NCBI GenBank assembly: GCA_963674945.2
Contig: CAXXWQ010000004.1
Location: 1,184,001-1,248,000, forward strand
DNA: 64,000 nucleotides
From: an uncultured Desulfosarcina sp.
GTDB lineage: Bacteria; Desulfobacterota; Desulfobacteria; Desulfobacterales; Desulfosarcinaceae
Direction: 5' to 3'
A model generated the notes under the pieces. That model had not been told where the DNA came from and did no database searches. It worked only from the letters and a program-made list of their open reading frames with translations. Made by a program: the position numbers and the translations under genes. This document shows, piece after piece, positions 12,021 through 33,369 of the stretch. Position 1 is the stretch's first letter. Each line of letters begins with the position of its first letter.

Positions 12021-12978
12021 TTTGGCGATGCTGTCGGTGGTGATTCCCGTTTTCAACGAAGAGGCCAATCTCGACGAATTGATCCGCCGCTGTCTGGAGG
12101 CCTGCCGCAAGGCCGACCGGCCCTTTGAAATCATTATGGTGGATGACGGCAGCCGCGATCGCTCCGCCGAAATACTGGAAGCCGCGGCCACGGACCATCC
12201 GGGTGTGATCGTGGCCGTTTTCCTGAACCGCAACTACGGCCAGCATGCAGCCGTCATGGCCGGCTTCGAACAGGTGCGCGGCGACATCGTGATCACCCTG
12301 GACGCGGACCTTCAAAATCCCCCGGAGGAGATCCCGCGTCTGGCATCGACCATGGACCAGGGATTCGATGTGGTGGGCACTGTGCGGTCCAACCGCCAGG
12401 ACACCCTGTTTCGCCGGGCGTCATCGGCCCTTATCAACCGATCGATACAGAAAGCCACCGGCGTCATGATGCATGACTACGGATGTATGCTCAGAGCCTA
12501 CCGTGGCAAAATTGTGCAGGCCATGCGCATGTGCCGTGAACACAGCACCTTCATCCCGATTTTGGCCAACAGTTTTGCCCGCCACACCACCGAAATCGAG
12601 GTTGGGCACGACTCCCGCATGAATGGTAACTCCAAATACAGTTTGCCGAAGTTGATCTCCCTCATGTTCGACGTGGTGACCTCAATGACTACCTATCCCT
12701 TGCGATTGCTCAGCCTCCTGGGATCGATCGTATCGGCCATGGGCATCGGCTTCGGTTGTTTCCTGTTGTTCATGCGCCTCATTTTCGGGGCCACCTGGGC
12801 CGCCGAAGGGGTTTTCACCCTCTTTGCCATCCTGTTTATCTTTGTCGGCGTCCAGTTCGTGGGCATGGGCCTTCTGGGAGAATATCTCGGGCGGGTGTAT
12901 CACGACGTCCGTGCCCGGCCGCGCTTTTTTGTCCAGAGGGTGATCGCCGCCCATCAATGGGAGGAGGAAATGCGATGA
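12013..12978 (+). CDS. arnC: Undecaprenyl-phosphate 4-deoxy-4-formamido-L-arabinose transferase (GT2)
   Basis: [44 protein letters not shown]; two C-terminal TMs. Confidence 0.92.
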
Positions 12979-15018: not shown

Positions 15019-15920
15019 CGGCACTCGGGTTGCGTGTGGATGCGGACACGCTAAGCGGTACCCGAAAGGGTGTGCCGACCCTGTGCCGCCTCTTCCGCCG
15101 GCATGGCATCCATGCCTCCTTTTTCTTTTCCGTGGGTCCGGACAACATGGGCCGCCACCTTTGGCGGCTGCTGCGCCCGGCGTTTCTCGTCAAGATGCTT
15201 CGTTCACGCGCCGCCAGCCTGTACGGATGGGATATCCTGCTGCGGGGGACGTTCTGGCCTGGACCGGATATCGGCTCCCATGCTGCAAAAATGATTCGTG
15301 ATGCGGCTGACGATGGCCATGAGATCGGTCTGCATGCCTGGGATCATCATGCCTGGCAGTCTCATATCGAGAAGATGGATGGGGCGGCGATCGACAAAGT
15401 GCTCCGTAACGGACTCGACCGGCTGAGCAAGATCACCGGGCGACTGCCGGAGTGCTCGGCCGCCCCGGCTTGGCGCTGTACCCCGCAGGTATTAACAAAA
15501 AAAATTGCATTCCCTTTTGTCTATAACAGCGATTGCCGCGGCCACAGTATCTTCTATCCGGTGGTAGGTGAACGGTACTTGCCCCAACCCCAGATCCCCG
15601 TCACCCTGCCCACCTATGATGAAGTGATCGACCGAAATGGGATTACGAACGCCAACTACAACGACTATCTTCTCGGCCTGATCCAACCCGGCCGCCTCAA
15701 TGTGCTGGCGATCCATGCCGAGGTGGAGGGCGGCGTCTGCGAGGGCATGTTTTCCGCGTTCTTAGACAGCGCCCTGGCCTGTGGAATCAACCCGGTTCCC
15801 TTGCGCGCACTGTTGGATACAGCCGATATCAGTCCGTCGGAGATGGTCCAAACAACCTTTGCCGGTCGTGAAGGATGGATTTCCTGCCAGCTTAAAAAAC
15901 AGAAAGCAATCCATGAATAA
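15015..15920 (+). CDS. arnD: 4-deoxy-4-formamido-L-arabinose-phosphoundecaprenol deformylase
   Basis: [44 protein letters not shown]. Confidence 0.92.
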
Positions 15921-16284
15921 ATATCTACCCCTGATCATTACCGGAGTCTTGCTCAACGCTGCGGCCCAGATCGTCCTCAAGCGGGGCATGCTGGCCATTG
16001 GTAAATTCTCATTCACTATAGACAACTTGATTCCCATCGGCCTGCGGGTCGGGTCGAACCCTTTTGTATTACTCGGTATCGGTTTCTATGGTATCAGTGT
16101 TGTGGTTTGGCTACTGGTGCTTTCCCGTGTTGATGTCAGCTATGCCTACCCAATGTTGAGCATCGGTTATATTGTCGCAGCATTGGCTGGAAAAGTGTTT
16201 TTCGGAGAACCAGTGGACATCGTCCGGTGGTTAGGCATTTGTACCATCTGTTTGGGTGTATACTTGATTACGCGCACGGCATAA
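15913..16284 (+). CDS. Small DMT/EamA membrane protein, ArnE/ArnF-like flippase subunit
   Basis: ATG 15913 MNKYLPL; AQIVLK, LSRVDVSYAYP, GEPV; 123 aa, 4 TMs. Confidence 0.8.
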   Translation: MNKYLPLIITGVLLNAAAQIVLKRGMLAIGKFSFTIDNLIPIGLRVGSNPFVLLGIGFYGISVVVWLLVLSRVDVSYAYPMLSIGYIVAALAGKVFFGEPVDIVRWLGICTICLGVYLITRTA

Positions 16285-18560: not shown

Positions 18561-19190
18561 TTAAAGGGCCATGGCCCATTTGAAAACGTTGTCCAGAAAC
18601 TTCTGGGTCTTCTTGACCACGCCGTATCCGGCATGGACCTCCGGGTCCAGGGTGGTCGCCAGAATCCGGCCTTTGAAATTTCTTGAATCCAAATAGATGA
18701 TATCACCGTCGTCCCCGTATCTCAGAAGCACTTCGGCATTGGCAGGGGCCTTGAACATGCCGTGAAAATGCCATTGCAGGTCATCGATGGTCAGGTTCTC
18801 AAACAAGGGATGCTCGGGCTTCAGTATCCGATAGGGATCCGTGACCAGTTGCCCTTTGTCCCATATACATTCCTTTGTGCCGTCCTCCTTGTATACAAAG
18901 TCCGGATACCGGTCCTCCCACTGACAGAGGGGAAGCCAGGGCCTGGTAACCTCTCCGAATGAAATCAGCAAGTTGCCCTGATTCAGAAATTCCTTGATCA
19001 TGGGTTTTGTCTGAAGCAAGACCTCCTGGTTGGATTCACGGGGAACAATCAGAACATCAAATGCCAAGATGTCCGTTGCCGGGAAATCACAGGCGTGAAT
19101 CACATGGTTTATCCATTTACCGTATTTATCGGATGTAAATAGATCATGCTGCCATTGGGAACCTGAATAAAATACACCGATCTCAGCCAT
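18561..19190 (-). CDS. Hypothetical protein, possible class I glutamine-amidotransferase-like fold; paralog of the next gene
   Basis: 209 aa; YSG...QH, FDVLIVPR..NQE, FL..G....SFGE, HPLF, HG.F, LDPEVH; overlaps its neighbour. Confidence 0.75.
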   Translation of the reverse strand: MAEIGVFYSGSQWQHDLFTSDKYGKWINHVIHACDFPATDILAFDVLIVPRESNQEVLLQTKPMIKEFLNQGNLLISFGEVTRPWLPLCQWEDRYPDFVYKEDGTKECIWDKGQLVTDPYRILKPEHPLFENLTIDDLQWHFHGMFKAPANAEVLLRYGDDGDIIYLDSRNFKGRILATTLDPEVHAGYGVVKKTQKFLDNVFKWAMAL

Positions 19191-19830
19191 TTGTTTTCCC
19201 CTTTTTGATTTTTATGGATTCCTCTTTGGCCCATCGTAAGATATTATTCAGGAGGACGTCCGCACCCTTTATCAAATGATAGGAGTGGCAGATGGCATCC
19301 AGTTGGCTGGCGGCCAGAATGACGCCCTTTGTGGAGTGCCGGTCGATATACATGACCGGATCTCCCAACATGTTGGTGACCAGAATCTCGGCCCCTTCGG
19401 GCGCAATGAAATGGCCGTGACAACACCATCCTGTCGCCCCCTTATGCCAGTGAAGGTCATCCGGTTTCAGATTATCCAGAATGACCGGATGCCTGTGATG
19501 GATCGTTAACGGCTCGTCATCCTCAGGTTTTACCCCGTCCCATGTGCAGGCGGGCAGCCACTTGTTTGTCACCTCCCCGAAGGAGATGACGATTTTCCCC
19601 GAATCCAGATACGCGGCAATTTTATCGCGTACCCGGTACAAGATCTCCTGATCCGTGCCCCTGGGCAGGATCAGCACGTCATAGACGAAAAGATTGGTTT
19701 CAGGCAGGGTGCAAACCGGCAGTATCTCCAGTCGCTTCCTGAATTTTTCCCGGTCCAGTACGCCATGCTGGTAACTTAAGCCAGAGTAAACAGCGGCCAT
19801 CCTGACTTCGGCCGGATCCATAGCATTCAT
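19183..19830 (-). CDS. Hypothetical protein, paralog of 18561-19190
   Basis: 215 aa; YSG...QH, YDVLILPR..DQE, YL..G....SFGE, WCCHGHF, LDAICH; AGGGAG RBS. Confidence 0.75.
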   Translation of the reverse strand: MNAMDPAEVRMAAVYSGLSYQHGVLDREKFRKRLEILPVCTLPETNLFVYDVLILPRGTDQEILYRVRDKIAAYLDSGKIVISFGEVTNKWLPACTWDGVKPEDDEPLTIHHRHPVILDNLKPDDLHWHKGATGWCCHGHFIAPEGAEILVTNMLGDPVMYIDRHSTKGVILAASQLDAICHSYHLIKGADVLLNNILRWAKEESIKIKKGKTNG

Positions 19831-19917
19831 TTACGTATCTCCCTTTTATCTTGGTGGAGCGGCATCTTATCATTTACTGATCCAACGCTCATATTCGTGC
19901 TGTATTTGCCAGCCCGG

Positions 19918-20712
19918 TTAACTGTTTCTCAGCGGAACGACTGTCCTGCCATCCTGGCCGTCTTGCTCAAACGAGAGAATTCTGACATTCATCTCAAATA
20001 CATTTTTCATATTCTCTTCTGTAATCACGGATGCCGGACATCCGGTCACAACGGTTTTGCCTTTTCCCATTAACAGGGCCTTATGGGAAACGGACAGGGC
20101 ATGGTCCGGAAAATGGGTGGTCATGATGGAAGCGATGTTTTTCTCCCTGGACAGCTTTTCGAGTACATCGAGAATGACCATCTGTTTGTTGAAATCCAGG
20201 TGTGAAGTGGGTTCATCAAGCAACAGCACCATGGGCTGTGCGGCCAGTGCCCGGGCGATGAGGACAAGCTGGGCCTCTCCGCCGCTCAGGTGGGGATACG
20301 GTCTATCCACCAGATGCCCGATACACAAGGTTTCAATGGCCTCCCGGGCGATTTTCTCGTCCCTGGCCGAGGGGGAAGAAAACAATCCCATATAGGGCGC
20401 TCTTCCCATGAGAACCATTTCAAATACGGTATAGGGAAAGGTCAAATCGCTGGTCTGCGCCACGTAGCCCACTTTTTTACCGATATCCATCTTTTTCAAG
20501 GTCTCCAGATTCCTGCCCCCGATCCGCACCTGCCCCTGCCTGAGACAATGCAACCCGTTGATGCATTTGAGCAGGGTGGTTTTACCGGATCCATTGGGGC
20601 CGAGAATGCTGAAAATTTCACCTTGGGCCACTGAAAAACCGATCTCCCGAAACACATATTCGCCGCCATCATATCCGAAAGCCGCATTTTCCACCTCTAT
20701 GATCATGTCCAT
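19918..20712 (-). CDS. Metal-chelate/cobalamin ABC importer ATPase (FecE/BtuD-like)
   Basis: GPNGSGKTT, LSGGE, LDEPTSHLD, TTHFPDHA. Confidence 0.92.
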   Translation of the reverse strand: MDMIIEVENAAFGYDGGEYVFREIGFSVAQGEIFSILGPNGSGKTTLLKCINGLHCLRQGQVRIGGRNLETLKKMDIGKKVGYVAQTSDLTFPYTVFEMVLMGRAPYMGLFSSPSARDEKIAREAIETLCIGHLVDRPYPHLSGGEAQLVLIARALAAQPMVLLLDEPTSHLDFNKQMVILDVLEKLSREKNIASIMTTHFPDHALSVSHKALLMGKGKTVVTGCPASVITEENMKNVFEMNVRILSFEQDGQDGRTVVPLRNS

Positions 20713-21719
20713 CGACCTCCTGTTTTTCGTAATAACACGGCAAAAAACGGTGCCCCGATAATAGCGGTGAGGATACTCAGGGGAATCTCCGCGGAAGTCG
20801 CGGCCCGGGCCAGGTCATCGATGATGAGCAAGGAAAAAGCCCCGATGGAAACACAGGCCGGCATCAAGGCCTTGTGGTTGGGACCCACCAGCATTCTGCC
20901 GATATGGGGAATAACCAGCCCGACCCAGCCCACGATGCCGCACAGGGAAACGGCTGCGGCCGTTATCACGGTGGCCGCCGTAATAATGATCCACCGAAGC
21001 CACCGAGTATTGATGCCCAGGGCCTGAGCTTCTTCCTCGCCCAAGGACAGGATGTTGATCTTCCATCGCAACAAAAGAAGTAAGACGCTGCCGATCAGAA
21101 TGGGCGGCCCCCCCCACAAAAGGTCCTTGTAAGAACTCCCGGCCATGCTCCCCATGAGCCAGTAGACGATGGTGGGCAGTTGTTCCTCCGGATCGGCCAC
21201 GTATTTCGTGAGCCCGATAAGGGCCGTAAAAAAGGCTCCCACGATCACGCCGGCAAGCACCAGCATGAGGAGGGATGTCCCTGTCTTGAGCCGGCTGATC
21301 AAGCATGCCAGCACCACGGCCAGAATACCAAAGGCAAAGGCGAACAATTGAATGGCAATGGCCTCTCCGGAGGTCAGGATGCCGATACAGGCCCCGAATC
21401 CGGCCCCAGCGGAGACGCCGAGGATGTCGGGGCTTACCAGGGGATTTCGAAAAAGGCCCTGAAATGCGGCACCGGCCACTGCCAATCCCGATCCCACCAG
21501 AACGGCCAGTAGCAAGCGCGGCAACCGGATTTGAAGCACCACGGATTCCTCTATGGCGGTCCAGGTGGCGTCAACCGGTAAGAAGCGCGAAATAAAAATG
21601 TCAAACCCCGTACCCGGGGAGATGCTATATCTTCCCATGTATACGGAAAGCCCAAAGGCCAGGATCGGCAATATAATCAGCACCGGCGTGGTGATCCGTA
21701 TTCGCTCTTTTTTCAACAT
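20703..21719 (-). CDS. FecCD/BtuC-family ABC permease
   Basis: IRLPR, FQGLFRNPLVSPDILG, EEEA..LG, G.VGWVGL..PH, EIP..ILT..IGAP. Confidence 0.93.
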   Translation of the reverse strand: MLKKERIRITTPVLIILPILAFGLSVYMGRYSISPGTGFDIFISRFLPVDATWTAIEESVVLQIRLPRLLLAVLVGSGLAVAGAAFQGLFRNPLVSPDILGVSAGAGFGACIGILTSGEAIAIQLFAFAFGILAVVLACLISRLKTGTSLLMLVLAGVIVGAFFTALIGLTKYVADPEEQLPTIVYWLMGSMAGSSYKDLLWGGPPILIGSVLLLLLRWKINILSLGEEEAQALGINTRWLRWIIITAATVITAAAVSLCGIVGWVGLVIPHIGRMLVGPNHKALMPACVSIGAFSLLIIDDLARAATSAEIPLSILTAIIGAPFFAVLLRKTGGRWT

Positions 21720-21774
21720 ATCGCTTCCTTTTCAAAATCGGCCCTGCGCATAGAAAAGGTCTTCTTTCACACAT

Positions 21775-22941
21775 TCACATTCGGGATCCTTTGGCAGCTG
21801 AACGCACGGGATGAAGAATCCGTTCCACCTGCTCATCGGAAAGTTGGTAATGATAGAATCGAGAATAAAATTTCTTAATCTCTTCTTCTATGGTGAAGTC
21901 ACGAAACAATTCCGGATGATTTTTCTGGGCCATCCATTTCAGCATGAGCGGCGCATCCGGATTCGGAGGATACCATCCGTATATCCCCAGGGGAATCTTA
22001 TAGACCTTTCCCTTTTTCACCGCGTTCACGATGCTCCAGTTCTGTCCTTCCACGGTGTTTTGTAACAGCGCCTCGGGCAGTGTGTCGCTGAAATTACTGA
22101 TGTAGATGATGTCCGGATTCCACTGGTAGATCTGCTCCATATTCACGGAAACCCGGCCCGACACGCACGCCGCCATATTGACCGCGCCGGTGGACGTGAT
22201 CCAGAAATGGCCATAGTGACCGGTTCCGGGGATATTGATTTCCTCTGCACTGTGGTAGTAGAGAATAAGCACCTTAGGCCGTCGTTTCTGGGGCACGCCC
22301 CGCAGCCTGGATGCGATCATCTCCATGGTCGCAAGATTGTATGCGATCAGTTCGGCCGCCTTTTCTTCCTCTTGAAAAATGCTGCCCACCAGGGTGATCC
22401 ATGTATTCAGGGTTTCCATGGCGTTTCCGCCGCTGATGGTGTGAACGGCCACGGCGGGGATGTCGATGGCGTCAAACTGCTGCCGCTGCCTGGGATACAA
22501 TCCCCAGAAGATAAAGAGGTCCGGCTCCAGTTTGAGGGCCTCTTCGATGTTCAGGTCCTTGCCCTTGACAAAGCCCGCAGCCATGTTCATCAGTTCCGGT
22601 GCCAGGACACCCAGCATGGAGATTCTTGCCTTGCTTTTGACCGCCGGGTGTATGCCCACGATTTTTTTGCATGAGCCGGTCACCGCATAACAGACCGCCG
22701 GAAGCGGAAAGGAGGTAACAATCACCCGATCGATGGATTCGGGGAGCCGGACCCGTCTGTTGTCCTGATCCGTTACCGTCCGCCAGGTACGATCCTGTGC
22801 CGCCGGTATGTCGGACACGGCAGCCCCTGACGGAAACGCACCTTCCGTGTTGTCACATCCGGTCATCACCATAAAGGTCAGGACCGGAATCAGCATCAGG
22901 GCATTACCAAGGGTACGTTTTGTTGCATACGTCCTTTTCAT
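21775..22941 (-). CDS. FecB/BtuF-type substrate-binding lipoprotein
   Basis: ATG 22941 overlaps the upstream TGA (ATGA); lipobox MTGC; VTDQ..R.V..P...R, NIEE.L.L.PD, VNMEQI..WNPD, AVK.GKVY..P. Confidence 0.88.
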   Translation of the reverse strand: MKRTYATKRTLGNALMLIPVLTFMVMTGCDNTEGAFPSGAAVSDIPAAQDRTWRTVTDQDNRRVRLPESIDRVIVTSFPLPAVCYAVTGSCKKIVGIHPAVKSKARISMLGVLAPELMNMAAGFVKGKDLNIEEALKLEPDLFIFWGLYPRQRQQFDAIDIPAVAVHTISGGNAMETLNTWITLVGSIFQEEEKAAELIAYNLATMEMIASRLRGVPQKRRPKVLILYYHSAEEINIPGTGHYGHFWITSTGAVNMAACVSGRVSVNMEQIYQWNPDIIYISNFSDTLPEALLQNTVEGQNWSIVNAVKKGKVYKIPLGIYGWYPPNPDAPLMLKWMAQKNHPELFRDFTIEEEIKKFYSRFYHYQLSDEQVERILHPVRSAAKGSRM

Positions 22942-24140
22942 CCTCTTATCCCGTTTGCACAGGTCCTTACCTTTTCCTGAAAATACCATGCCCCTTCCGG
23001 GCCGATGAAACTCGGGCCGTCATCCCAGTACAGACGGCTGGACAGGGCGATATGGGGAAAGGCGATGAATTGCCCCTTTCCGGACGAAGCCGTTAGACCC
23101 CGATATAAGGGATCTCCCACAATGACGGAATACGGATGCCTTTGTGTCAATGTAATCAGATCATCTTCCCCCTCAAGACGAATATCACATTCCTCTGAAA
23201 GCCATGGATCCATGTCAAAAAAAGAGGCCACGGTCACCCTGGAAAACCCCAAATCCAGACGCAGGCAGTTGCGGACGGCATTTGCCGTCACCTGTTCGCC
23301 CAGCACGAGCACTTCTCGTGTATCCAGTACGGGAAAAGAAGACGGTGGCTGTCCCATGCCCGACGTCTTGTCCAGATCAAGTAAGAAACGAACGTCGTTG
23401 ATAAAATGTTCAGTGGGTTTGCTTCCGATGGGTAAGCCCACCAGAAAGGGAATACCCTGTTCGCGCTCAAGGAAACGAGCGGCTGCAAGACCCGTACGGG
23501 AAACAACGATATTGAGCCTGGCTTCGGCCGACGCCGCAATCTCATCGAGGGAGGAACCCATGGCCCAGCATGAAACGATTCTGCAGCCGGCATTGGTGAG
23601 AAGGGTAAAAAACCGTTCCTTGTGCAGACCGTATCCGAAATCAAGGGGGGTCAGACCGATAATATTGACACCGATCTCATGGGTCGATAGGCGCGGTTTT
23701 ACAAAGCGGCGCGCCAATTCCAAAAAGGCATCGGAGGCCCCGTGATCGTAAGTATTGAGTCCATTGGTGTCAAACACCAGGATCGGCAGTTCTGTCCGTT
23801 GAGAAAGGATATGGCCCAGAGCCCGAAAGTCCGTTCCGATCACCATGGGGGCAGGGCTGCCCACGAGGGCGATAAAGTGCGGATGGATGGTTGTAAGGGC
23901 GTTTTCGATCTTGGTGAGCAGCTTTTCATCATCCCCCACAACCGCATCGATTTCTCGCAGACCACTGCTCATGACCGCGCTGGTGCTGCCGTACCAGCGG
24001 GGCTCGTCATAGGCGGTGAAATTACCGATGCACCCGCCACCATCATGGATCACCACCAACCCGCCCAGATCGAAGAGCGCAGAACACACGCCCGAATAGT
24101 CGGGTGCAAAGGGCGGTAATATGGAGTAGAGTCCTTTCAT
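22938..24140 (-). CDS. Nitrogenase component 1-like oxidoreductase, K/B-like subunit (Nfl)
   Basis: PDYSG, IHDGGGC, L.E.D.V.GD..KL, GSPAPMVIGTD, VNIIG, A.LNIV; 400 aa. Confidence 0.82.
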   Translation of the reverse strand: MKGLYSILPPFAPDYSGVCSALFDLGGLVVIHDGGGCIGNFTAYDEPRWYGSTSAVMSSGLREIDAVVGDDEKLLTKIENALTTIHPHFIALVGSPAPMVIGTDFRALGHILSQRTELPILVFDTNGLNTYDHGASDAFLELARRFVKPRLSTHEIGVNIIGLTPLDFGYGLHKERFFTLLTNAGCRIVSCWAMGSSLDEIAASAEARLNIVVSRTGLAAARFLEREQGIPFLVGLPIGSKPTEHFINDVRFLLDLDKTSGMGQPPSSFPVLDTREVLVLGEQVTANAVRNCLRLDLGFSRVTVASFFDMDPWLSEECDIRLEGEDDLITLTQRHPYSVIVGDPLYRGLTASSGKGQFIAFPHIALSSRLYWDDGPSFIGPEGAWYFQEKVRTCANGIRG

Positions 24141-24152
24141 TTATGATGATCC

Positions 24153-25463
24153 TTATAAAACCATGCCGGAGGCATACATCTGTTCCCGGTGATTCCGGGG
24201 ATGCTCGAGGGCATGATGCATTTCACTCAACAAAAAAGTGACCGCCTGAAACCCGAAAGGCTGTTTCTCCAGGCCCAGGGGAACGGTCACGGCATTCCGG
24301 CAAAAGTATCCGGCGTCAAATCCGATGGCCACATCCGCCGTCAACGCCTCATTGATCAGGCCAGCCATGGTCGGATGCAAGTTGGTAAAAACCTTTATTC
24401 CCAACCGTCGACGCCGGAGCCATTGAATGTGCTCCAAGTCAATATCCAGGATCTGATCCGCAATGATGTAGCGGACCCGAAAGCCGAATTCACTTAAAGC
24501 CCGGGCAAGCTCGAAAGGCGTTGCATTGGCCGTGGATCCAACGGCCATGTCCAGCGGGCCCAGGATTTTTCCATATGCCCGAATCGTGTCCAGGGCCGCT
24601 TCGCGATAAGTATGCGTATTCAGCTTCACATCCAGGGCCTGTTCCAGCAGGCCGTAATTGCGGGCAATAATGTCCGGGGTATAGGATACGGGTGCGTAAC
24701 AATAAGGCGTTCCGAGTTTTCTGTGCAGGTGTTCCACGGCCAGCCGACCGGCCGGCCGGATCAGCAGGTTATGGGCCGAACGACTCATTTGTTGAAATTC
24801 CGCCAACGTGGCACATGCCCCCACATGGCGAATGTGATTGATGCCTGCCTCTGCCATCAACGGATACAACTCACTCTCCGCATCAACAGGGACAAAATTC
24901 CCCATGACATTGACCGCCCTCTCTTGCTCAACAGGCGGTTCAAGAAAATCATACAAGGCCCGCTGGACGGTTAACAGAGGCGGTGTTTTTCCGTCCGTGG
25001 CGATGGGATCCATGTGACAGATGCGAATTGGAACGCCGTGTACCGCCTCCAAATGCCGAGCAAGCCCGTCATAGTCCGAGCCCAGCAGATCATCCAGACA
25101 GGAGGCACAGATGAGCATCGCCTTTGGCTGCGGCTGACGCATTGCCAGGATTTCACCGACGGCCAGGGGTATTTTTTCCATATGGTTCCCGGTTACGATA
25201 TCCGTTTCGGTTACGTGCAGCAGGAACAGGCGTTCCTTGAAGCCCAGTTGAAGGGCTGCAATGGCGCCGTGACGACCGCAGCCGGCCGGTGCGACCAGGA
25301 GCAGTACGGATTCGGGAACCAAAAGCCCCACCCGAACGATTCCCCATCCCCCGGCGCTTGCCGGACAGTAATGGAGGCAATCCGGCGATATCAACCGGTG
25401 CCGCTGAATCGCATCCGTATGTTCCAGTTCACTTACCGGGATGCAATAGGCCGTCATGTTCAC
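24153..25463 (-). CDS. Nitrogenase component 1-like oxidoreductase, D/N-like subunit (Nfl)
   Basis: APAGC (C62), [19 protein letters not shown] (C122), VNVMG, PFGF near the C-terminus; 436 aa; overlaps the H-like gene. Confidence 0.82.
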
Positions 25464-26218
25464 AAATCCCCCCGGGCTTGGGATATGCGGCGGGCGATAG
25501 CGAAAAGGGTTTGTGACACAGCGAGTTCCGGATTTCCCTGAATGACCGTTTGGTGCTGTTGCTCAAAGTACTGGATCTGACGATCCCGGGGAATGTCACC
25601 CATGATTTCCGTGTTTATCTCTTGTGCGAATCGTGTCACAATGGTTTCCTCATTTTCTACGTCGCGCCGGTTCAGAATCAGACCACGCAACCGGGCATAA
25701 TTCCGGTCGGCAAAGCTATCGATGGCCGTCTTGATGTTGTTGGCGGCAAACAGAGCCATCTTCTCCCCTGATGTTACAATAATGACCTCGTCAGCATAGC
25801 CCTCCCGCAGGGGCATGGCAAACCCGCCGCATACCACGTCGCCCAGCACATCAAATAGGACGAAATCCGGACGATAGACATCAAAGGCATGCAGATCCTC
25901 GAGTATAGTAAAGGCCGTAATAATCCCCCTGCCCGCGCAGCCGCGGCCCGGGGTGGGGCCGCCTGCTTCGACACATAGAATACCGTTAAACCCCTCAACA
26001 ACAATGTCCGAAAGAGAGGAACACGACCCGTGTTCCTGAAGAAATGCCATGACCGGCGTGACGGCCCTGCCATTTGTCAGATTAACGGTGGAGTCCGCCT
26101 TTGGATCGCAGCCGATTTGCATGACCTTAAATCCCAGCATGGAAAGTGCGGCGGACAGGGAGCCGGTAATGGTTGATTTACCGATTCCCCCTTTGCCGTA
26201 AAAAGCGATTTTTCGCAT
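25460..26218 (-). CDS. NifH/BchL/CfbC-family Fe protein (nitrogenase reductase-like, NflH)
   Basis: [47 protein letters not shown] (both 4Fe-4S Cys retained); 252 aa. Confidence 0.93.
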
Positions 26219-26244
26219 GTTTCATCTCTGTTGATATTTGGGTT

Positions 26245-26275
26245 GCCCATCCATCACCCTCGGTGATGGATGGGC
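26245..26275. other. Perfect 14-bp intergenic hairpin without a U-tract
   Basis: GCCCATCCATCACC-CTC-GGTGATGGATGGGC between the TonB receptor stop and the nifH-like start. Confidence 0.7.
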
Positions 26276-26281
26276 GTGTGT

Positions 26282-28477
26282 CTAAAATCTGGACGTCAAG
26301 GAGACGGATACACACCGGCCTGGTTCCAGCAGGGGATTGGTATCGCTCCTATCATAGGATATATCTTCTGTTGTGGTCGGATTGCGGTATTTCTCGTCCA
26401 GGATGTTCTCTACTGCCATGCGCAACTCCATGTCCGGAAGACGAGAGGACAGTTTCCTGATGTCAAACCCCATATAGAGGTTCCATATGAAGTAGGCGTC
26501 GGTCTCCCGTTCCTGGGTGTCATCGATGCGGTCCTTTTCGGCCGACCATTTATTGGTGGCTTCAATGTAAAAATCCTTGCTGTCGGGCGTATAACGGACG
26601 CCCACAAGACCATTGAGGGGCGCGATATAAGGCAGTGGTGTATCGGTTTTGGTGTCCGTGCCGTGCAAGTAGGCAGCATTCATGAAGGCCTTCCAGTTTT
26701 CGTTCGCCACCCAGGAGGCGTCCAGTTCAAGGCCTTTGATGCGGGCTTCGCCCACGTTCTGTCGCTGCGTGGCGGTTGTTCCTGCGTAGATGGTGGAGTC
26801 CACGGTCTTTCTGACGATCAGGTCTTCATACTCACTCCAAAACCCCGTCAGATTGGCGGTCACGATCGGCAAGCGCAATCGTATGCCCACCTCGTGAGTC
26901 ATTCCCTTTTCCGGATCAAGGTCGGGATTGGGTTCAAAACCGGAGCTCATCTCGAATTTCTCAGTACTCGTGGGCGCGCGGTAAGTGGTGCTGGAGTTTG
27001 CCGTGAAATGCAAGATGGGGATCGGTCGGTAGATCACCCCCGCACTTCCGGTAACGGGGTAGTCGCTCGACTCGGTGGAGCCCGTGTAATTGGGGACATC
27101 GTCCTTTGCTTCGGAACGGAAATAATCCAACCGGCCGCTTGCAGAAATCGTCCACTTCTCCGACGGATCCCAGTCATCATGCACGAACAGCCCCACATTG
27201 AGCTGGGAAGAATCGATTCCGGATTTTTTTCGGGCGGAGTAAGACGTCAGATTTCCATCCGCATCATACTTGGCTACCTCTTGCTCCGAGGCGTCGCGGT
27301 CCTCATAAAAGAAATCCGTGCCGATGGTAAGGGAATTGGTGGCCCCCCATGATTGAACACCGAACAATTTGCCCCCTGTGATCAACGGGCCGTCCACATA
27401 GACGTCGGCCTTGGTCAGACTCGAGGCGGGATCATCCTTGGGGCGTTTTTTCACGATCATATGCGTATACAGATCCCTTGCATACAAACTGGCCTCGATG
27501 TGCTCAAGCCCCAGGGTCCTCTCGCCTTGGTAATGGATCTTTGCCATTTTTTCCTTGAACGGCTCCTGCCTCCGTACATTATAGGGATAACCGGGCACGG
27601 CATAGATGCCTCCTGCCTGCCCCTGTTCCACTTCCATGTATTTTGCGGACAGTTCGATTCGATGATCTTGGGCCAGGGTATATCCGAGTTTCAGATCCGT
27701 GGACCATGACTCCATGTCGCTGTTGGCAATCTCCCCATCCGGACTTTCATAATCGTCCGACTTGCTACCGGAGAGCCCTATAAGCATATCAAAACCGTTT
27801 CCCACCCCCTGAACTTCAAGGGAACCCTTTCGAAGATTGCTGGCGCTGGAATAGGATAGCGATCTTAACCGGGGGGACAGTGTAAACGGTCCGTCAATGT
27901 CGCCTTCGGCCTTTCGGGTGATGACGTTGATCAGACCGGCCATGGAGTCGGTGCCGTACATGGAGGCGGCAGGACCGCGGATGACTTCAATGCGTTCAAT
28001 GCGGCTCGGGTCAAGGGCAATATACTCAAAGGTATTGCGACCCCGAAAACGATCCCCGTCAATGAAGAGGGGAGAGCGTGAATCATTGGAGTTGAATCCC
28101 CGTAAGTTGACCTGTCCGCCCAAGGGGCCTGCCCGGGAAAAGGATATTCCCGGAATCTCATCCAGTAATTCCAATATGGTGGCGGGATTGCGGGTCTCGA
28201 TGGTCTCTTTGTCGATCACGCTGACCGGCTTTGGTGTCAAATCCACGGCCCGTTCCGTCCGTGTCGTGGTCACCACCATTTCTCCCAAATCGATGGGCGC
28301 TTTTATTTGGCTCGTTTTCTCTCCGTTTTTTTCCTCCTTTTCCAGGGTCTGTTCGATTTCCGTACTGCTCAGGGTCGTCTCATCCATTTTTTCCGCAGCC
28401 GAGGTCTGCGATTGTTCAAGAAAGACAAGGGCGATCATCAGACTCAACAAACAACTAGCTCTTCGTACACCTTTCAT
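26282..28477 (-). CDS. TonB-dependent outer-membrane receptor
   Basis: Signal peptide, EMVVTTTRTE TonB box, plug motif IERIEVIRGPAASMYG...AG.IN.IT, YRAP and NPDL loops, C-terminal Phe; 731 aa. Confidence 0.93.
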   Translation of the reverse strand: MKGVRRASCLLSLMIALVFLEQSQTSAAEKMDETTLSSTEIEQTLEKEEKNGEKTSQIKAPIDLGEMVVTTTRTERAVDLTPKPVSVIDKETIETRNPATILELLDEIPGISFSRAGPLGGQVNLRGFNSNDSRSPLFIDGDRFRGRNTFEYIALDPSRIERIEVIRGPAASMYGTDSMAGLINVITRKAEGDIDGPFTLSPRLRSLSYSSASNLRKGSLEVQGVGNGFDMLIGLSGSKSDDYESPDGEIANSDMESWSTDLKLGYTLAQDHRIELSAKYMEVEQGQAGGIYAVPGYPYNVRRQEPFKEKMAKIHYQGERTLGLEHIEASLYARDLYTHMIVKKRPKDDPASSLTKADVYVDGPLITGGKLFGVQSWGATNSLTIGTDFFYEDRDASEQEVAKYDADGNLTSYSARKKSGIDSSQLNVGLFVHDDWDPSEKWTISASGRLDYFRSEAKDDVPNYTGSTESSDYPVTGSAGVIYRPIPILHFTANSSTTYRAPTSTEKFEMSSGFEPNPDLDPEKGMTHEVGIRLRLPIVTANLTGFWSEYEDLIVRKTVDSTIYAGTTATQRQNVGEARIKGLELDASWVANENWKAFMNAAYLHGTDTKTDTPLPYIAPLNGLVGVRYTPDSKDFYIEATNKWSAEKDRIDDTQERETDAYFIWNLYMGFDIRKLSSRLPDMELRMAVENILDEKYRNPTTTEDISYDRSDTNPLLEPGRCVSVSLTSRF

Positions 28478-28740
28478 ACCTCAATCTTCCTCCTGATTTC
28501 GGGGCCTGCGCGAAGCCCGTGGAGTCGTGATAAAAAATGAACTGTCTTTGAAATCAACGACCCTTGTTTACTGTTGACAATACCCCCGATCCGTCTGAAA
28601 GAGGTGCGCATTGAATCCGGTCGAATTGCTTTTTTCTCTCCGGAGGATAATTCTTTCCCGGCCCGGGATTTTTCCTGTTACTGCCTCACCCGGGTCTTGT
28701 TTTGCGAATCATGATAAACTGACACCCATGCGGCATGCGC

Positions 28741-29316
28741 CTATTCTCCGCGTATTACGCCCTTTACGGCGGTAATGGTCTTTTCTGGTTTCAGAAGGCC
28801 TGCCGGCGTCAAATTCAGACCGGGGATATCCGACCCGATCATTTCAAGAAAGACGCTTTGGGCCTTAAGGGAAAAATCCTGATACCCCGGGCTGTATCGC
28901 CGGGTGGTACTGCTTTTCTCCCGCTCACATTCCCGAACAATTTTTTTGTCCAGGTTCCTCATCTCCCCTTCCACGAGATAGCTTCCCATGCGGTCCAGAA
29001 TGTACCCGGAGAACGTCTCGTTTTGTGCAAAATAATCCCGGGAACGTCGTTCCAGGTCATCCCCCAGGCTCACGGCCATGAGCCAAACCTGATGGGCCTC
29101 GGCCAGCAGCCGGGTAATGGCCTTGTTTTGCCGGGCGTGTGAATGAAAAAGGAGAAAAAATTCATTCACGGGAAGCAGATGGCGCCAACGCCGCACATCA
29201 AGCAACTGATGGGCCTCGTTCCAGAGTCGTGCGGTCTGTTCCATGGCGAGAGAGTCCTTTTCAATCTGAAGATATTTCAGGACTTTTTCCGTGAGTCGCG
29301 GTATCTCCCCTGCCAT
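28741..29316 (-). CDS. Stand-alone B12-dependent methionine synthase activation-domain-like protein
   Basis: AVSLG..LE, YILD..GS..VE, RYSPGY.DF.L..Q, LT...LL.PEKTITA. Confidence 0.78.
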   Translation of the reverse strand: MAGEIPRLTEKVLKYLQIEKDSLAMEQTARLWNEAHQLLDVRRWRHLLPVNEFFLLFHSHARQNKAITRLLAEAHQVWLMAVSLGDDLERRSRDYFAQNETFSGYILDRMGSYLVEGEMRNLDKKIVRECEREKSSTTRRYSPGYQDFSLKAQSVFLEMIGSDIPGLNLTPAGLLKPEKTITAVKGVIRGE

Positions 29317-29325
29317 GACGCCCTC

Positions 29326-30924
29326 TTACCCGTTGGTTTTTCCCAAGATGTCCTTGACCAGTTTTACGGCCCCCACGGCATCGCGGGCATACCCCTGCGT
29401 TCCGATGGAAGCGGCGATCTGCGGGTTGACCGCTGCCCCGCCCACAATAATGGAAACCGGACGGACATCGGACCGGTTGAAGTTGTTGACAATCTCGACC
29501 AATTGCTTGCGGGCGCCGGTGATAAAAGCGGATAATCCTACCACAGGTGCCTCATAAGTGTTGACGGCCGCAAGAAAGTCCCCGGCCGGGACATTGACGC
29601 CCAGGTCAAGCACCTTTACACCATTGGTTTCCAGAATGATCCTGACCAGATTCTTGCCGATCTCGTGGAAATCCCCCTTGACCGTTCCGAGAATCACCTG
29701 GGGCGGCCGGTCTCCCGCGGCGCCCAGGTGCGGTTCCAATGTGCGGAATCCCTGGTAAAAGGCATCCACCATCAAAAGAATCTCCGGCAGGAAGGACTGC
29801 CGTGACTCATAACAGGCACTGCCTTTGCGCACCGCCCGCATCAGGGCTGAATTGACGATCATGAGAGGGTCTGTCTCTTCTTTCAGGGACGTTGAGACCA
29901 ACGCCGACACGGTTTCGCGTTTTCCCCGGTGGACCGCGTCGGACAGCCGGGAAAGGGTTTGGGCATGGGGCGTAAGTTCGGACAAGGCCCTTTTGCCCGT
30001 CTCAATGAAACGCACTACATTTGCAATGGGGGTTCCCGGCGGAAGGGCACAACCGGTGCTCAAGATAAAATTATCCTTTACGCCCATGGTGGCCACCAGG
30101 TCCTTCGTACTTGCCGCCACCTCTTCGGGCGGGGCCAGTTCGATGATCTCCACTGGATCGATATTGCCGACAATGCCCACCGATTTCGGAACAATGTCTT
30201 CATAGGCCAGAAGGTCCATACACTGATCAAAACTGATGGCCCGGACTCCGGTCTTGACCATGTCCTTGAGGATCTGTGAGGTGTCCCCACAGATATGAAG
30301 GACCGTGGGTTCCGTTGGATGGATGTCATAAAGACGGGCCAAAAATTCTCCTGCAAACCGCCAGAAGCTGTCGGGCGGCAGCAGGGCCGCCAGGGGGTCT
30401 GAAATCCAGAAGACCTCGGCCCCCGCGTCCAGAAGATAGCGGCCGTAATCCCGGGCGCAGGCCAGGCATTTTTCCATCAGATCAAGGACTTCTCCCGGCC
30501 TTTCCACAATTCCCCGAAGAAGTTCCTGTTCCCCGGCCAATTGCCCGGCCACGGTGAAGGGGCCGTACACCATGGTGGACAGGGTCCTGTCCGGAAACTC
30601 CTTTGCCATACGCTTCAGGACCTGGGCATTGACCGCCATCCTGGGAACCGTTGCAGGTGGGACAACATTAACGGAACTGCCGGGCATCTCCACGGACGGC
30701 ATGGCATCGGGTGAAAAACACACCTTCGCACCCATGGCCTCCGCCTGAATGGCGATATCGCTGAAGTAGAACAGGATATCGGCATCCACCTGCTGATAAT
30801 ACTTTTTTACGGCCTCAAATTTGATATCGGCATTCCAGGAAATGTCGTCGATCCCGGCCTCAACCATTTGAAAAGAGGGGAGCGCATTGATGGGAAACAC
30901 CTTGTTCCGTAAGGAATGTTCCAT
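29326..30924 (-). CDS. Fusion of UroD/MtaA-family methyltransferase and corrinoid-binding protein (CmuA-like architecture)
   Basis: EAMG, GPFT.A, LHICG and STGC Zn-site motifs; C-terminal GTVKGDFHEIGKNLV (DxHxxG), VGLS and VGGA; ATG 30924 with AAGGA RBS (532 aa). Confidence 0.85.
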   Translation of the reverse strand: MEHSLRNKVFPINALPSFQMVEAGIDDISWNADIKFEAVKKYYQQVDADILFYFSDIAIQAEAMGAKVCFSPDAMPSVEMPGSSVNVVPPATVPRMAVNAQVLKRMAKEFPDRTLSTMVYGPFTVAGQLAGEQELLRGIVERPGEVLDLMEKCLACARDYGRYLLDAGAEVFWISDPLAALLPPDSFWRFAGEFLARLYDIHPTEPTVLHICGDTSQILKDMVKTGVRAISFDQCMDLLAYEDIVPKSVGIVGNIDPVEIIELAPPEEVAASTKDLVATMGVKDNFILSTGCALPPGTPIANVVRFIETGKRALSELTPHAQTLSRLSDAVHRGKRETVSALVSTSLKEETDPLMIVNSALMRAVRKGSACYESRQSFLPEILLMVDAFYQGFRTLEPHLGAAGDRPPQVILGTVKGDFHEIGKNLVRIILETNGVKVLDLGVNVPAGDFLAAVNTYEAPVVGLSAFITGARKQLVEIVNNFNRSDVRPVSIIVGGAAVNPQIAASIGTQGYARDAVGAVKLVKDILGKTNG

Positions 30925-31224
30925 TTTTATCGATCCTTTTCGATGATGGCGAAGAGGCGGCGACGTCAGTCCCCCTTCGGTGTGACAGCCATTGTCTATG
31001 GACACGGCACATCGCCAGGGCACCATCACACCTGCGGCATCACCTTCCGAATCTTTAATGGAACGAGGTGGACCGGAACTTAATTAAAAGTGTTTAAAAG
31101 GATAAACTCGTTGAGGATATCAATTTCTCAGTCTGCCCTCCGTCTATCAACCCGGATAGCTCTTCGCATGTATTATCATGTAAAACCGAAAAATCGATAC
31201 ATCTTGGAAAACCTCTGAAAGGTC

Positions 31225-31277
31225 AAATCATATAATATGATTTTGGCACCATTAGTCCCGAAACGGATTCATGTCAA
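31225..31277 (-). promoter_or_regulatory. Putative sigma70 promoter with a perfect 19-bp palindromic operator over the start site
   Basis: TTGACA (31277-31272)-N17-TAATGG (31254-31249); AAATCATAT-A-ATATGATTT at 31225-31243. Confidence 0.55.
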
Positions 31278-31580: not shown

Positions 31581-32096
31581 CTATTGTTTCCGATTCTTCT
31601 GAATGGCACGACGCACTTTTTCCCGCTGGTCCGGCGTAAGCTGTTGCCAGCGCCGGTACTGACGCATGAGTTTTTGTCTTTGTGCCGGCGTTAGATTTTT
31701 TAACCTTTTGTTCAGCTGCCGTATACGCTCTTTCTCCTTTACCGGCAATCGTTGCCAGCGACTGTATTTCTCTCTTACGGCCGCTTTTTGCTTTTCATTC
31801 AAATTCGTAAAACGCTTGTAATTTTCCCTGATGCGACTGCGCTCGTCATCCGGAAGGGCTTTAAATGCCTTGACCTTCTCATGAAGTGCATTCCGTTGAT
31901 CCTCACTCAAAGACTCCCATTTCGAAAACCGTTGTCGTAGCTGTTCTTTTTCCTCCGGACTGAGCTTCTGCCAGCGTGAAGCGGCGTCCTCTTCGGATGA
32001 TTTGGCTTCGGTCGTCTGGGCAAATCCCATGGCCAGCCCCAGCAAAAGCGTGGCCAGAAAGAATAATATTGTCAGATTAGTTCGTGGCGTGTTCAT
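31581..32096 (-). CDS. DUF3106-like exported helical-repeat protein
   Basis: Signal peptide; repeated W/F..L(S/T/P)P.(Q/E)(R/K)..L units of about 18 aa. Confidence 0.8.
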   Translation of the reverse strand: MNTPRTNLTILFFLATLLLGLAMGFAQTTEAKSSEEDAASRWQKLSPEEKEQLRQRFSKWESLSEDQRNALHEKVKAFKALPDDERSRIRENYKRFTNLNEKQKAAVREKYSRWQRLPVKEKERIRQLNKRLKNLTPAQRQKLMRQYRRWQQLTPDQREKVRRAIQKNRKQ

Positions 32097-32310
32097 CGCG
32101 ATCGTCCTCGGTTAAATACTCCAGGTCTTTGATCATGTCCATTGTCTCGACCAAATCCCAATTCTCTAAGATTTCCATCACCTCGATGACTTTCATATCA
32201 GCCGGACTGGGAGGTGCCGCCTCTTTTTCCATTTCACTCCCTTCCCCCCATGCCGCGGCAGCGCTCAATGCAAACAAAAAGAGTAAAACCCATACGACGC
32301 GCCTTTCCAT
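32077..32310 (-). CDS. Small exported/membrane protein of the ECF operon
   Basis: ATG 32310 overlaps the anti-sigma stop; hydrophobic N-terminus; acidic MEILENWDLVETMDMIKDLEYL tail. Confidence 0.65.
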   Translation of the reverse strand: MERRVVWVLLFLFALSAAAAWGEGSEMEKEAAPPSPADMKVIEVMEILENWDLVETMDMIKDLEYLTEDDRDEHATN

Positions 32311-32789
32311 CAGGACCGCTCTTCCATGGCTTCCAGAATTTCCCATGATTCCAGAATATCCAGGTTGTGGATCACTTCAAAATCATCCAGAAGCTCGATA
32401 TTTTCGGCGATGAAAGCCTCTTCGGGTGTCGGGGATGACTGGTGTCCAACGGCAAAGATCGCAAAAACGGCCAGCCCTGCCATACCGCCTACCAGTATGG
32501 GCCGCCAACCGGAAAGCAGACAACGCCACCCCCCTCGGCGTCGTTTCCGGTCCTCCAGCAATTCCACCTTTTGCCAGAAGGTACGGTCGAAGCTTTCCGA
32601 CGGGTCCGCTTTCGGCAGCCGTCGCATGAAATCATCGGCCTGTTCGAGCCGCCGCAACCTTCGACGACACGCCGGGCAGTGTCGAAGATGACCGGTAACA
32701 TACGCGGCGTCTTCTGGTGAAAGCTCGCCGTCTATCATAAGGTCGAGCCAATACGGCTCCTTACAAGGATCGATTTCTTTCTTTTTCAA
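32310..32789 (-). CDS. Zinc-binding (ZAS, zf-HC2) anti-sigma factor
   Basis: DGEL, HLRHCPAC (Hx3Cx2C), one TM; overlaps the sigma gene. Confidence 0.88.
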   Translation of the reverse strand: MKKKEIDPCKEPYWLDLMIDGELSPEDAAYVTGHLRHCPACRRRLRRLEQADDFMRRLPKADPSESFDRTFWQKVELLEDRKRRRGGWRCLLSGWRPILVGGMAGLAVFAIFAVGHQSSPTPEEAFIAENIELLDDFEVIHNLDILESWEILEAMEERS

Positions 32790-33369
32790 AGTAGTCTCCC
32801 AGTATCTCTTTCAAACGTTTGCGGCCCCTGTGAATCAATGTTTTGACGTGGTTTTCCGACCGCTTGATCTGCACCGAGATCTCCCGATAGGAGAACTCCT
32901 CGTTGACACGAAGCAGAAGCGCCAACCGCTGTTGATCCGGCAACTGGCGGATGGCCCGTTGAACCAGTTGATGCCGCTCCAAAGACTCGTATAATCCGTC
33001 TGGTGCAGTACTTTCCGGCCTGGCGGCAATTTCCGGAACGGCCGTTTTTTTCTCCATATCCGGCAGAGGATCCATGGATTCGATCTTTTCCCGATAGACC
33101 GGTCTCCGAATCTCGTTTCGGCACACGTTGGCGGCAATGGTAAAGAGCCAAGTGGAAAAACGGGCATTGGGTCGATATCGGGGTGCCGCCGTGTAAACCC
33201 GCAAAAATGTTTCTTGTGCCAGCTCTTCTGCAACGGATCGGTCACCACAGAATCGAAGGCAAAAATTGATCACCCGATTTTTGTATTTGTCAAACAAATG
33301 CTGGAATGCCCGTTGGTCCCCCTTTTTGAAATCCAGCATCAATTGAATGTCAGGATCGTTTCGCATCAA
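32761..33369 (-). CDS. ECF RNA polymerase sigma factor
   Basis: GD..AF..L, AEELAQETF, FSTWLFTIA.N, LP..QR, SY.EI, VKTLIHRGR; start 33369 (TTG) or 33366 (ATG). Confidence 0.93.
   Translation of the reverse strand: MMRNDPDIQLMLDFKKGDQRAFQHLFDKYKNRVINFCLRFCGDRSVAEELAQETFLRVYTAAPRYRPNARFSTWLFTIAANVCRNEIRRPVYREKIESMDPLPDMEKKTAVPEIAARPESTAPDGLYESLERHQLVQRAIRQLPDQQRLALLLRVNEEFSYREISVQIKRSENHVKTLIHRGRKRLKEILGDYFEKERNRSL

Follow-up and report, generated by a model that had tools for sequence, protein, structure and literature searches.

An eleven-gene cluster in the genome of an uncultured Desulfosarcina sp. encodes an uncharacterised nitrogenase-like (NFL) enzyme, whose genes we call H, D, and K, together with a TonB-dependent receptor and an ATP-binding cassette (ABC) importer. 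The cluster lies on the minus strand at positions 18561-30924 of the window, as we call the whole stretch of 64,000 nucleotides that was analysed (assembly GCA_963674945.2, contig CAXXWQ010000004.1, positions 1,184,001 to 1,248,000). Across loci, the conserved unit is H-D-K plus an importer. We propose that H/D/K could be an ATP-driven reductase that frees iron or cobalt from a chelate imported by the TonB receptor and the MolA/CeuE-type ABC importer, and we rate the chances that this proposal is right as about even. A methyltransferase-corrinoid fusion and an activation gene at the head of the cluster are best read as a separate module that was joined to the operon in one lineage.

Layout of the Cluster

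The sequence-only reading of the window had claimed eleven co-oriented genes, and all of them are intact open reading frames (ORFs) in the order that it gave: the methyltransferase-corrinoid fusion, the activation gene, the receptor gene, H, D, K, the genes for the binding protein, the permease, and the ATPase, and two paralogs that we call U1 and U2. Its family assignments held as well, since profile searches yielded matches to a UroD/MtaA plus B12-binding fusion, a TonB receptor, Fer4_NifH, PF00148 (twice), Peripla_BP_2, a FecCD-type permease, and an ATPase. From the methyltransferase to U2 the intergenic distances are 9, 263, 63, -4, 12, -52, 55, -10, 87, and -8 nt, whereby the binding protein gene overlaps K by 4 nt (ATGA) if its start is placed at Met17. 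The suggestion that many of the genes are translationally coupled applies to the four overlapping junctions, whereas the largest gap, the 263 nt between the activation gene and the receptor gene, parts the methyltransferase pair from the rest. A perfect 13-bp hairpin without a U tail (26246..26274, minus strand) is located between the receptor gene and H, and its sequence makes an mRNA-stabilising stem likely.

H, D, and K Occur Together With ABC Importers

Altogether 97 loci were gathered, 80 from metagenomes, 3 from genome contigs, 1 from a plasmid, and 13 from genome searches. H, D, and K were present in 68 of these, dereplication left 48 of them, and 28 of these non-redundant loci had flanks of 3 kb or more on each side. 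A binding protein and a permease of the window type were found at 16 of the 28 loci, and the binding proteins of the NFL loci form a coherent family. Four further loci carry another ABC importer, typed by Pfam or by ORF starts (Opp/Nik-type in G646, L127, and L047, sugar-type in L128). The remaining eight have no importer; all of them are distant (D identity of 29-33%) and lie inside hydrogenase-maturation operons. Outside such operons, an ABC importer is present at 20 of 20 non-redundant loci. We retain the earlier idea of import and low-potential reduction of a metal chelate as the best reading.

The other genes of the cluster recur less regularly. A receptor ortholog (63%) is located before H in L023, and in L046 the NFL module is flanked by U1 and U2 and by a partial receptor. 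The accessions of D and U1 are three apart in one Dehalococcoidia record, and D and U1 are on a contig of the same size in another record. Genes for FeoB, DtxR-FeoA, Fur, ZIP, and CobW are found among the neighbours of NFL loci. Beside one NFL subclade, a triad of a CobW/HypB-like GTPase, an ABC ATPase, and SBP_bac_6 recurs together with a Crp-type regulator (L048, L058, L061, L064, L065, L078, and L079).

The hydrogenase-linked loci bring up a different role for H/D/K, that of a helper in metallocluster assembly, for example in [FeFe]-hydrogenase maturation, for which the importer would provide metal or ligand. Distant members stand among hydE/hydF/hypDEF genes at 8 of the 28 loci and in L133, where an importer is present, and a similar remark was made for Coprococcus by Dos Santos 2012 (PMC3464626). 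However, the hydrogenase-linked members are 26-33% identical to the D of the window, the three that were tested form a separate branch, and no maturase gene was seen at the loci read that have a D of at least 47% identity. We therefore consider such a role highly improbable for the cluster of the window.

The hydrogenase-linked loci are of interest in their own right. In L107-L110 (from G233, G169, G136, and G343) and L129-L132, distant H-D-K sets are found among hydE/hydF and hypD/E/F genes, whereby L129-L132 each hold two NFL sets. In L107-L110 the NFL genes adjoin [FeFe]-hydrogenase subunit genes, and no hydG was seen, from ORF starts, within 16-20 kb. These loci are candidates for a HydG-free H-cluster maturation that uses Hyp proteins and an NFL.

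H/D/K Is a Nitrogenase-Like Enzyme Without FeMo-Cofactor Ligands

By profiles and motifs, H (25460..26218, 252 aa) is a NifH-like Fe protein in which Walker A, the switch motifs, and both cluster cysteines are kept. It is 49% identical to the true NifH of the genome, and its profile scores are below the curated cut-offs for nifH, CfbC, BchL, and BchX. D (24153..25463, 436 aa) and K (22938..24140, 400 aa) both match PF00148 but approach no curated family cut-off. In D, C62 and C122 are invariant at all 28 loci, while C33 is present in 15 of them and Ser or another residue in the other 13. K has a single invariant cysteine, C37 (26 of 26), a conserved D14, and a Pro at the third Cys position. 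In the D alignment, the positions of the iron-molybdenum cofactor (FeMo-cofactor) ligands alpha-C275 and alpha-H442 hold neither residue. With a NifH-type Fe protein and PF00148 subunits of the nitrogenase fold, H/D/K has what defines the nitrogenase superfamily, and judged by its sequence it is an uncharacterised nitrogenase-like enzyme without FeMo-cofactor ligands.

The model of D (predicted local distance difference test, pLDDT, of 90.6) shows 11-21% identity and Z-scores of 23-26 to nitrogenase beta chains, BchN/B, MarD/K, and NifEN. Since these are all about equally remote, the labels D and K are conventional. The D-K-[4Fe-4S] complex prediction reached 0.91, compared to 0.00 for the best of three controls, with all four cysteines at the predicted interface, an agreement of at least 85% of contacts between runs, and a partner pLDDT of at least 87. 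The mark used here is reached by 116 of 157 solved pairs and by 2 of 215 mismatched pairs, whereby the D-K pass may stem from likeness to solved NFL complexes. The predicted assembly is a D-K heterodimer with D-C33, D-C62, D-C122, and K-C37 at the interface, which would hold one [4Fe-4S] cluster as in chlorophyllide oxidoreductase (COR) and dark-operative protochlorophyllide oxidoreductase (DPOR).

The Importer Is Related to MolABC and CeuE

The TonB-dependent receptor (26282..28477, 731 aa) has a heme family as its best profile but stays below the cut-off (264 vs. 316.85 bits for the hemin-receptor family), and its best match in the PDB is PhuR. It is 39% identical over about 650 aa to the receptors of the NFL-less importer loci L114 and L119. 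The binding protein (21775..22941, likely start at Met17, longest ORF to 22989) is a class III lipoprotein of the MolA/CeuE branch. Its closest solved relatives are 4OVK (E 4e-69), MolA (3e-30), and CeuE (4e-15), and BtuF is not among its 13 solved relatives. The permease (20703..21719) is of the type II ABC class and is closest to MolB (HI1471; E 2.6e-78 vs. 4e-47 for HmuU and 3e-38 for BtuC among solved structures). A profile match assigns the ATPase (19918..20712) to the FecE/HmuV type. An identification with the BtuBFCD or Hmu heme importers was rejected, because the scores fall short for BtuB (133 vs. 600 bits), hemin receptor (264 vs. 317), and BtuC (233 vs. 461) and the nearest systems are MolA/MolB instead. 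MolABC of Haemophilus and CeuE/FecDE of Helicobacter represent the nearest solved binding proteins and permeases with known ligands; neither system is known to carry an NFL. Molybdate import as by MolABC was rejected as well, since the MolA anion ligands K221, R264, and Y301, as named in a 2026 preprint, appear unconserved in the binding protein of the window (alignment with an inferred offset of 21).

These comparisons bear on whether the cargo is tetrapyrrole-like, as had been suggested, which is possible. H/D/K could then act on an imported macrocycle (heme, corrinoid, or F430) in the way of DPOR/COR, for salvage or demetallation. The 3+1 Cys set resembles that of BchY/BchZ, the best NCBIfam profile for K is BchB (3e-18), the receptor leans to heme receptors, and the Fe, Co, and Ni contexts of the NFL loci are all compatible with metallo-tetrapyrroles. 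However, the binding protein and permease are far nearer to MolA/MolB than to HmuT/HmuU or BtuF/BtuC, the receptor does not reach the heme-family cut-off, and, with Z 24-26 to both, BchN/B are no nearer to D than nitrogenase beta chains are. Furthermore, no tetrapyrrole-pathway family occurs in 124 flanking proteins, the cobalt region of G646 excepted. Taken together, a macrocycle reductase appears distinctly unlikely.

U1 (19183..19830) has a class I glutamine amidotransferase (GAT)-like fold (E 6e-6, TM-score of about 0.5-0.58) and is regarded as an importer accessory from its co-occurrence, and U2 (18561..19190) is its paralog (33% identity). The fold fits, but a catalytic class I glutamine amidotransferase was rejected because the catalytic Cys is not there. 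U1 instead has an invariant G85-E86 where this Cys is expected, with Glu at the putative nucleophile elbow, and a conserved His/Cys-rich motif.

The U pair also travels with the window-type importer in aerobes that have no NFL, where some copies have Fur boxes and some are accompanied by C-P lyase genes. Homologs of U1 are present on 24 plasmid records; among nine such regions examined, six have a window-type importer, three an Opp/Nik-type importer, and none an NFL. No U1 relative was found in viral contigs, nor in G409, G410, G411, and G646 by a search without a positive control. The NFL-less copy of Methylosinus is located among siderophore receptors and a flavodoxin, in an iron-starvation island. 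In a quick tree with long-branch warnings, the NFL-less binding protein of Brevibacillus nests among NFL-linked ones, in a clade of 21 rows that includes that of the window and has a Shimodaira-Hasegawa-like approximate likelihood ratio test support of 100. The flank of the Brevibacillus locus (L115:1-4192) additionally harbors genes resembling a binary insecticidal toxin pair, which are unrelated to the cluster.

Plasmids of Agrobacterium, Martelella, and Klebsiella carry the C-P lyase genes phnGHIJKL behind genes for a related binding protein, permease, and ATPase, whereby the Klebsiella plasmid has no U genes. In L113:11248-18585, L117:10803-18514, and L122:6917-14594, phnGHIJKL thus stand after a FecB-type importer and a 171-aa protein of unknown function rather than after phnCDE, possibly for metal-phosphonate chelates. 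In the literature searched, no description of this plasmid arrangement was found.

The phn-linked importers suggest that H/D/K might act on an imported nutrient by cleaving a C-S or C-P bond, similar to Isr or Mar, and be the anaerobic stand-in for the C-P lyase of the sister importer. It would fit that orthologs of the methyltransferase lie near TauE/TauABC-like and metK/ahcY genes, and that all Group IV DK-type enzymes that are characterised and whose substrate is known cut C-S bonds according to a 2026 review (PMC13474568). On the other hand, the identity of the phn-linked binding proteins is only about 30% and they sit on a separate branch, sulfur and phosphate genes are not recurrent beside NFL loci, the cluster is without a radical S-adenosylmethionine (SAM) B gene, and the Fur and B12 signals described below indicate metals. 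Bond cleavage is thus a very unlikely function for this enzyme.

Regulatory Signals and Proposed Function

Fur-like boxes were found before H in L065 (16/19 positions) and L069 (17/19), both without an equal in 200 shuffles, and in L030 (14/19; 5 of 200 shuffles). The NFL-less importer and/or U-pair copies of Brevibacillus (17/19), Paenibacillus (18/19), and Cupriavidus (15/19) have such boxes too (each 0 of 200 shuffles). In G646, whose D is 50% identical to that of the window, H lies among cbiM and Nik-type genes and is preceded, at a distance of about 95 nt, by the end of a cobalamin riboswitch. The same region (L111:7460-13357 and L112:9139-9278) holds four 140-nt cobalamin riboswitches with similar scores, which precede cbiM, the nifH-like gene, and a cbiX-like gene.

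On reduction, chelates of Fe(III) and Co(III) turn labile. The enzyme is importer-linked, has a single predicted cluster, and is a putative ATP-driven electron donor with signals of Fe or Co control at some loci, and reductive metal release would be the simplest account of it. In this scheme, receptor, binding protein, and ABC transporter would import the intact metal chelate. The H dimer would then hydrolyse ATP and hand single electrons in turn to the D-K cluster, and reduction of the metal (Fe3+ or Co3+ to a labile 2+ state) or of the ligand would set the metal free. U1/U2 might act on the chelate, by binding or hydrolysing it, or else hold the metal.

Several observations speak against this proposal. 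C-P lyase genes are found on a sister importer branch, and this argues for bond cleavage and not for metal reduction. In the binding protein, the anion residues of MolA appear unconserved. Among the close orthologs and their kin, three have an importer of another family, one of them sugar-type. Of 27 NFL upstream regions, only two show a conspicuous Fur box, those of the sister lineages L065 and L069, and an Rfam riboswitch was detected at 1 of 29 NFL loci scanned (G646). In the window itself, neither a Fur box nor a riboswitch was found.

The window scan for promoters and terminators gave results at chance level. About 300 nt upstream of the methyltransferase there is a candidate operator palindrome (31225..31243, no strand assigned; 18/19 positions) for an unknown regulator. 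Its quality is matched by 1 of 200 shuffles, and the genome has no second exact copy of it. With 2 mismatches, three sites occur genome-wide, without a common theme, and among the fetched loci none outside the window has a copy with up to 2 mismatches. Genes for an extracytoplasmic function (ECF) sigma factor, a zf-HC2 anti-sigma factor, and a DUF3106 protein (31581-33369) lie directly upstream of the cluster on the same strand; they are also covered in a relative of about 92% identity.

The Methyltransferase Pair Is Probably a Module of Its Own

The first gene of the cluster (29326..30924, 532 aa) encodes an MtaA/CmuA-type methyltransferase fused to a corrinoid-binding domain. The motifs H210-x-C212..C292 and DxHxxG, which we take to be its Zn and corrinoid motifs, are intact, and the protein scores 133 bits compared to a cut-off of 235 for the MtaA/CmuA family. 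Its conserved partner (28741..29316, 191 aa) is a MetH-activation-domain-like protein with a weak Pfam match (E 0.011) and an Atlas score of 0.97 to Met_synt_B12 clusters, at a recognition value of 2250 just under the mark. The check for joint occurrence of all modules, which the sequence-only reading had proposed, was positive for H-D-K with the importer but not for this pair, since fusion and activation gene were found at none of the 28 loci. L026 has a free UroD-fold gene 9 kb off on the opposite strand, and G646 a free corrinoid gene. Orthologs of the fusion (49-59%) are present in G009, G041, G118, G154, and G270, in none of these five genomes with the NFL of the window, and they adjoin TauABC/NitT-type or branched-chain ABC importers. 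The activation gene is directly downstream of the fusion in 2 of 6 loci, G154 (51%) and G118 (45%). The occurrence of the fusion without this NFL and beside other importers argues that the methyltransferase pair is a module of its own, which may be a customer for cobalt or corrinoid rather than a step of the same pathway.

Some data suggest that the pair has been co-retained with the NFL in a narrow sister lineage. The methyltransferase P0283 (77%) and the D P0001 (67%), which is the sister of the window in the D tree with a support of 99, both have a longest contig of 27,085, and the methyltransferase P0152 (70%) and the U1 P0125 (66%) both have one of 14,191, enough for the 12.4-kb cluster; in both cases the contigs were matched in size alone. 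The D tree is likewise a quick tree with long-branch warnings, with only NifD/NifE of the genome as outgroup. The relative of about 92% identity covers all cluster genes in pieces, with the 263-nt gap unbridged. Due to these same-size contigs and this relative, the eleven-gene form is probably not a one-off. Two more size matches were disregarded because they may be due to chance, one at 3,217 (methyltransferase 52%, D 58%) and one at 5,628 (methyltransferase and U1).

It was therefore considered whether both modules form one corrinoid pathway, in which a corrinoid or cobalt tetrapyrrole is imported, H/D/K reduces it to Co(I), and the fused methyltransferase and its activation protein use the product. 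The contig matches, the coverage of all genes in the relative, and the riboswitch and corrinoid protein near H-D-K in G646 are in line with this, as is the single palindrome that heads the whole run without a convincing terminator between the modules. However, the contig matches consider size alone, fusion and activation gene are missing from all 28 loci, the fusion occurs apart from this NFL in 5 of 5 other genomes, none of the 12 cobalamin riboswitches of the genome is at the cluster, and BtuF is not among the solved relatives of the binding protein. We regard one integrated pathway as unlikely, and the earlier notion of a coupling to B12-dependent methyl transfer lacks support as a general feature, apart from the hint at narrow co-retention. 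RACE/RamA activators reduce corrinoid to Co(I). A broader, more speculative model, which we consider unlikely, is that the NFL is an exchangeable processing unit on a shared chassis for metal-chelate import (receptor, MolA-type ABC importer, and GAT-like pair). Aerobes would have this chassis alone or with a C-P lyase and anaerobes with H/D/K, whereby in the lineage of the window H/D/K would also reduce imported cobalt or corrinoid onto the fused methyltransferase, in place of a RACE-type activation.

The genome contains a second copy, at 99.6% identity, of the methyltransferase gene together with the initial 119 codons of the activation gene. This recent duplication of 1,972 bp (window 28959-30930 vs. 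C4:60868-62839) is located directly behind a peroxiredoxin gene on C4, about 4 kb away from a transposase-like ORF. An assembly artefact was rejected, as the depth is 43.5 compared to 23.9 and 20.4 on the flanks.

Genome Setting and Origin

As had been noted, the cluster has no nifB, nifE, or nifN; the genome does have them, in a canonical nifHDKENB cluster on C2. A native origin of the cluster was rejected: neither a D ortholog nor U1 was found in 60 relatives, and among 350 genomes of the phylum there was no close D ortholog but four distant matches. Their absence from the relatives suggests that the cluster was acquired; its GC content and GC content at third codon positions are unremarkable.

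Nine cobalamin riboswitches of the genome lie within about 61 kb (C3:2071308-2132719) among several TonB receptors and ABC permeases, in a large B12-regulated island. From ORF starts, a second FecCD-type importer with a TonB receptor, two class I SAM-methyltransferase-like genes, and a radical-SAM-like gene is found at C3:1579331-1586950, behind a helix-turn-helix regulator gene. In the window, positions 10842-16284 read as an arn-like operon for lipid A aminoarabinose modification, whose arnA-like gene appears split by frameshifts near 14100-14750.

Significance and Comparison With Known Systems

The 2026 review describes the functions of the remaining NFL clades as a major open problem for which gene context has been of little help so far (PMC13474568). 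Here, context gives a testable lead, as a widespread anaerobe NFL clade is tied to chelate importers, with iron or B12 control signals at some orthologs, and the NFL-less aerobic version of the importer offers a route to the ligand. If the proposal is true, the superfamily would gain a role in metal acquisition besides its roles for nitrogen, sulfur, and pigments, and the proposal would explain how metal in very low-potential or inert chelates becomes accessible to anaerobes. Moreover, surveys of nitrogen fixation might wrongly count the nifH-like gene of the cluster as a positive.

The claim that H/D/K falls outside of every characterised NFL group was borne out when the definitions of Nif, Mar, Nfa, Cfb, and Isr given by North and Shafaat 2026 and Morimoto 2024, and the DPOR/COR profiles, were applied. 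A Nif/Vnf/Anf nitrogenase was rejected because there are only 2-3 + 1 cysteines instead of the six of the P-cluster, both cofactor ligands are gone, and the scores are far under the cut-offs. For Mar/Nfa (Group IV-C and IV-A), the 3+3 P-cluster cysteines, the L-cluster ligands, and a B gene in the cluster are missing, and D shows 18-21% identity to MarD (E 6e-13). CfbCD (Group IV-B) does not fit, since D and K are two unlike subunits and not a homodimer, and the scores are too low (24.6 vs. 268.4 bits; for H 299.9 vs. 402). Isr (Group IV-F) differs in its Cys distribution, although the D and K labels could be swapped, and IsrB is absent from the cluster. Membership of DPOR/COR (Group V) was rejected because the scores stay below the family cut-offs and there is no bch/chl context.

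Nevertheless, two of these systems resemble H/D/K in part. COR (BchXYZ) and DPOR (BchLNB/ChlLNB) have the single interface [4Fe-4S] cluster with 3+1 ligands that is predicted for H/D/K, and have neither NifB nor a second cluster site, and the Cys pattern of the window resembles the BchY/BchZ motifs in the supplement of Morimoto 2024. They differ in that H/D/K scores 66 vs. 490 bits for BchB and 20 vs. 420 for BchN at 15-17% identity, that no photosynthesis genes are at the locus, and that the first of the three D cysteines is Ser or another residue in 13 of 28 NFL loci. IsrBHDK (PMC11423573) shares a four-Cys interface site, the lack of FeMo-cofactor ligands, and the linkage to an ABC importer, but IsrD provides one Cys and IsrK three, IsrB is needed, and the importer is for sulfonates. 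In the supplements of PMC11423573, three diagnostic motifs of the NFL clade of the window do not occur.

Concerning the methyltransferase, CmuA/MtaA-type corrinoid methyltransferases and type I mlp clusters share the UroD-fold Zn methyltransferase with a corrinoid partner, and mlp clusters were reported near Group IV-A Mar-like NFL genes (PMC10418091). The mlp clusters consist of several Mlps plus Ram/RACE, whereas the window has one fused protein and a MetH-type activation gene, and its NFL is not Mar/Nfa. Other MtaA-like clusters near Mar-like NFL genes were described by Kountz and Balskus, in a pairing unlike that of the window.

The closest counterpart is the "red" clade of Dos Santos 2012 (PMC3464626), uncharacterised NifHEN-like proteins such as Mlab_1040/1039 and Dhaf_1539/1540, with Cys at alpha-C88, alpha-C154, and beta-C95, without FeMo-cofactor ligands, and beside ABC transporters, for which metal transport coupled to cofactor assembly was suggested. 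The NFL of the window agrees with this clade in these conserved Cys positions, two in D and one in K, in the lack of cofactor ligands, and in the adjacent ABC transporter, a likeness in Cys pattern and gene context. In the literature searched, which covers few subscription papers, these locus tags occur only in PMC3464626, and no functional study of the NFL clade of the window was found. The superfamily itself and the ABC link of the clade are thus already known, the latter since 2012 (PMC3464626), and the term "undescribed system" used in the sequence-only reading was overstated. What may be new here, although the supplements of PMC3464626 may show similar gene orders, is the chassis of receptor and U pair that NFL-less aerobes have as well, the C-P lyase alternative, the B12-riboswitch ortholog in the window's own subclade, and the narrow methyltransferase add-on. 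Beyond what the text of PMC3464626 names for the "red" clade, the cluster of the window adds a TonB receptor, U1/U2, and the upstream methyltransferase pair.

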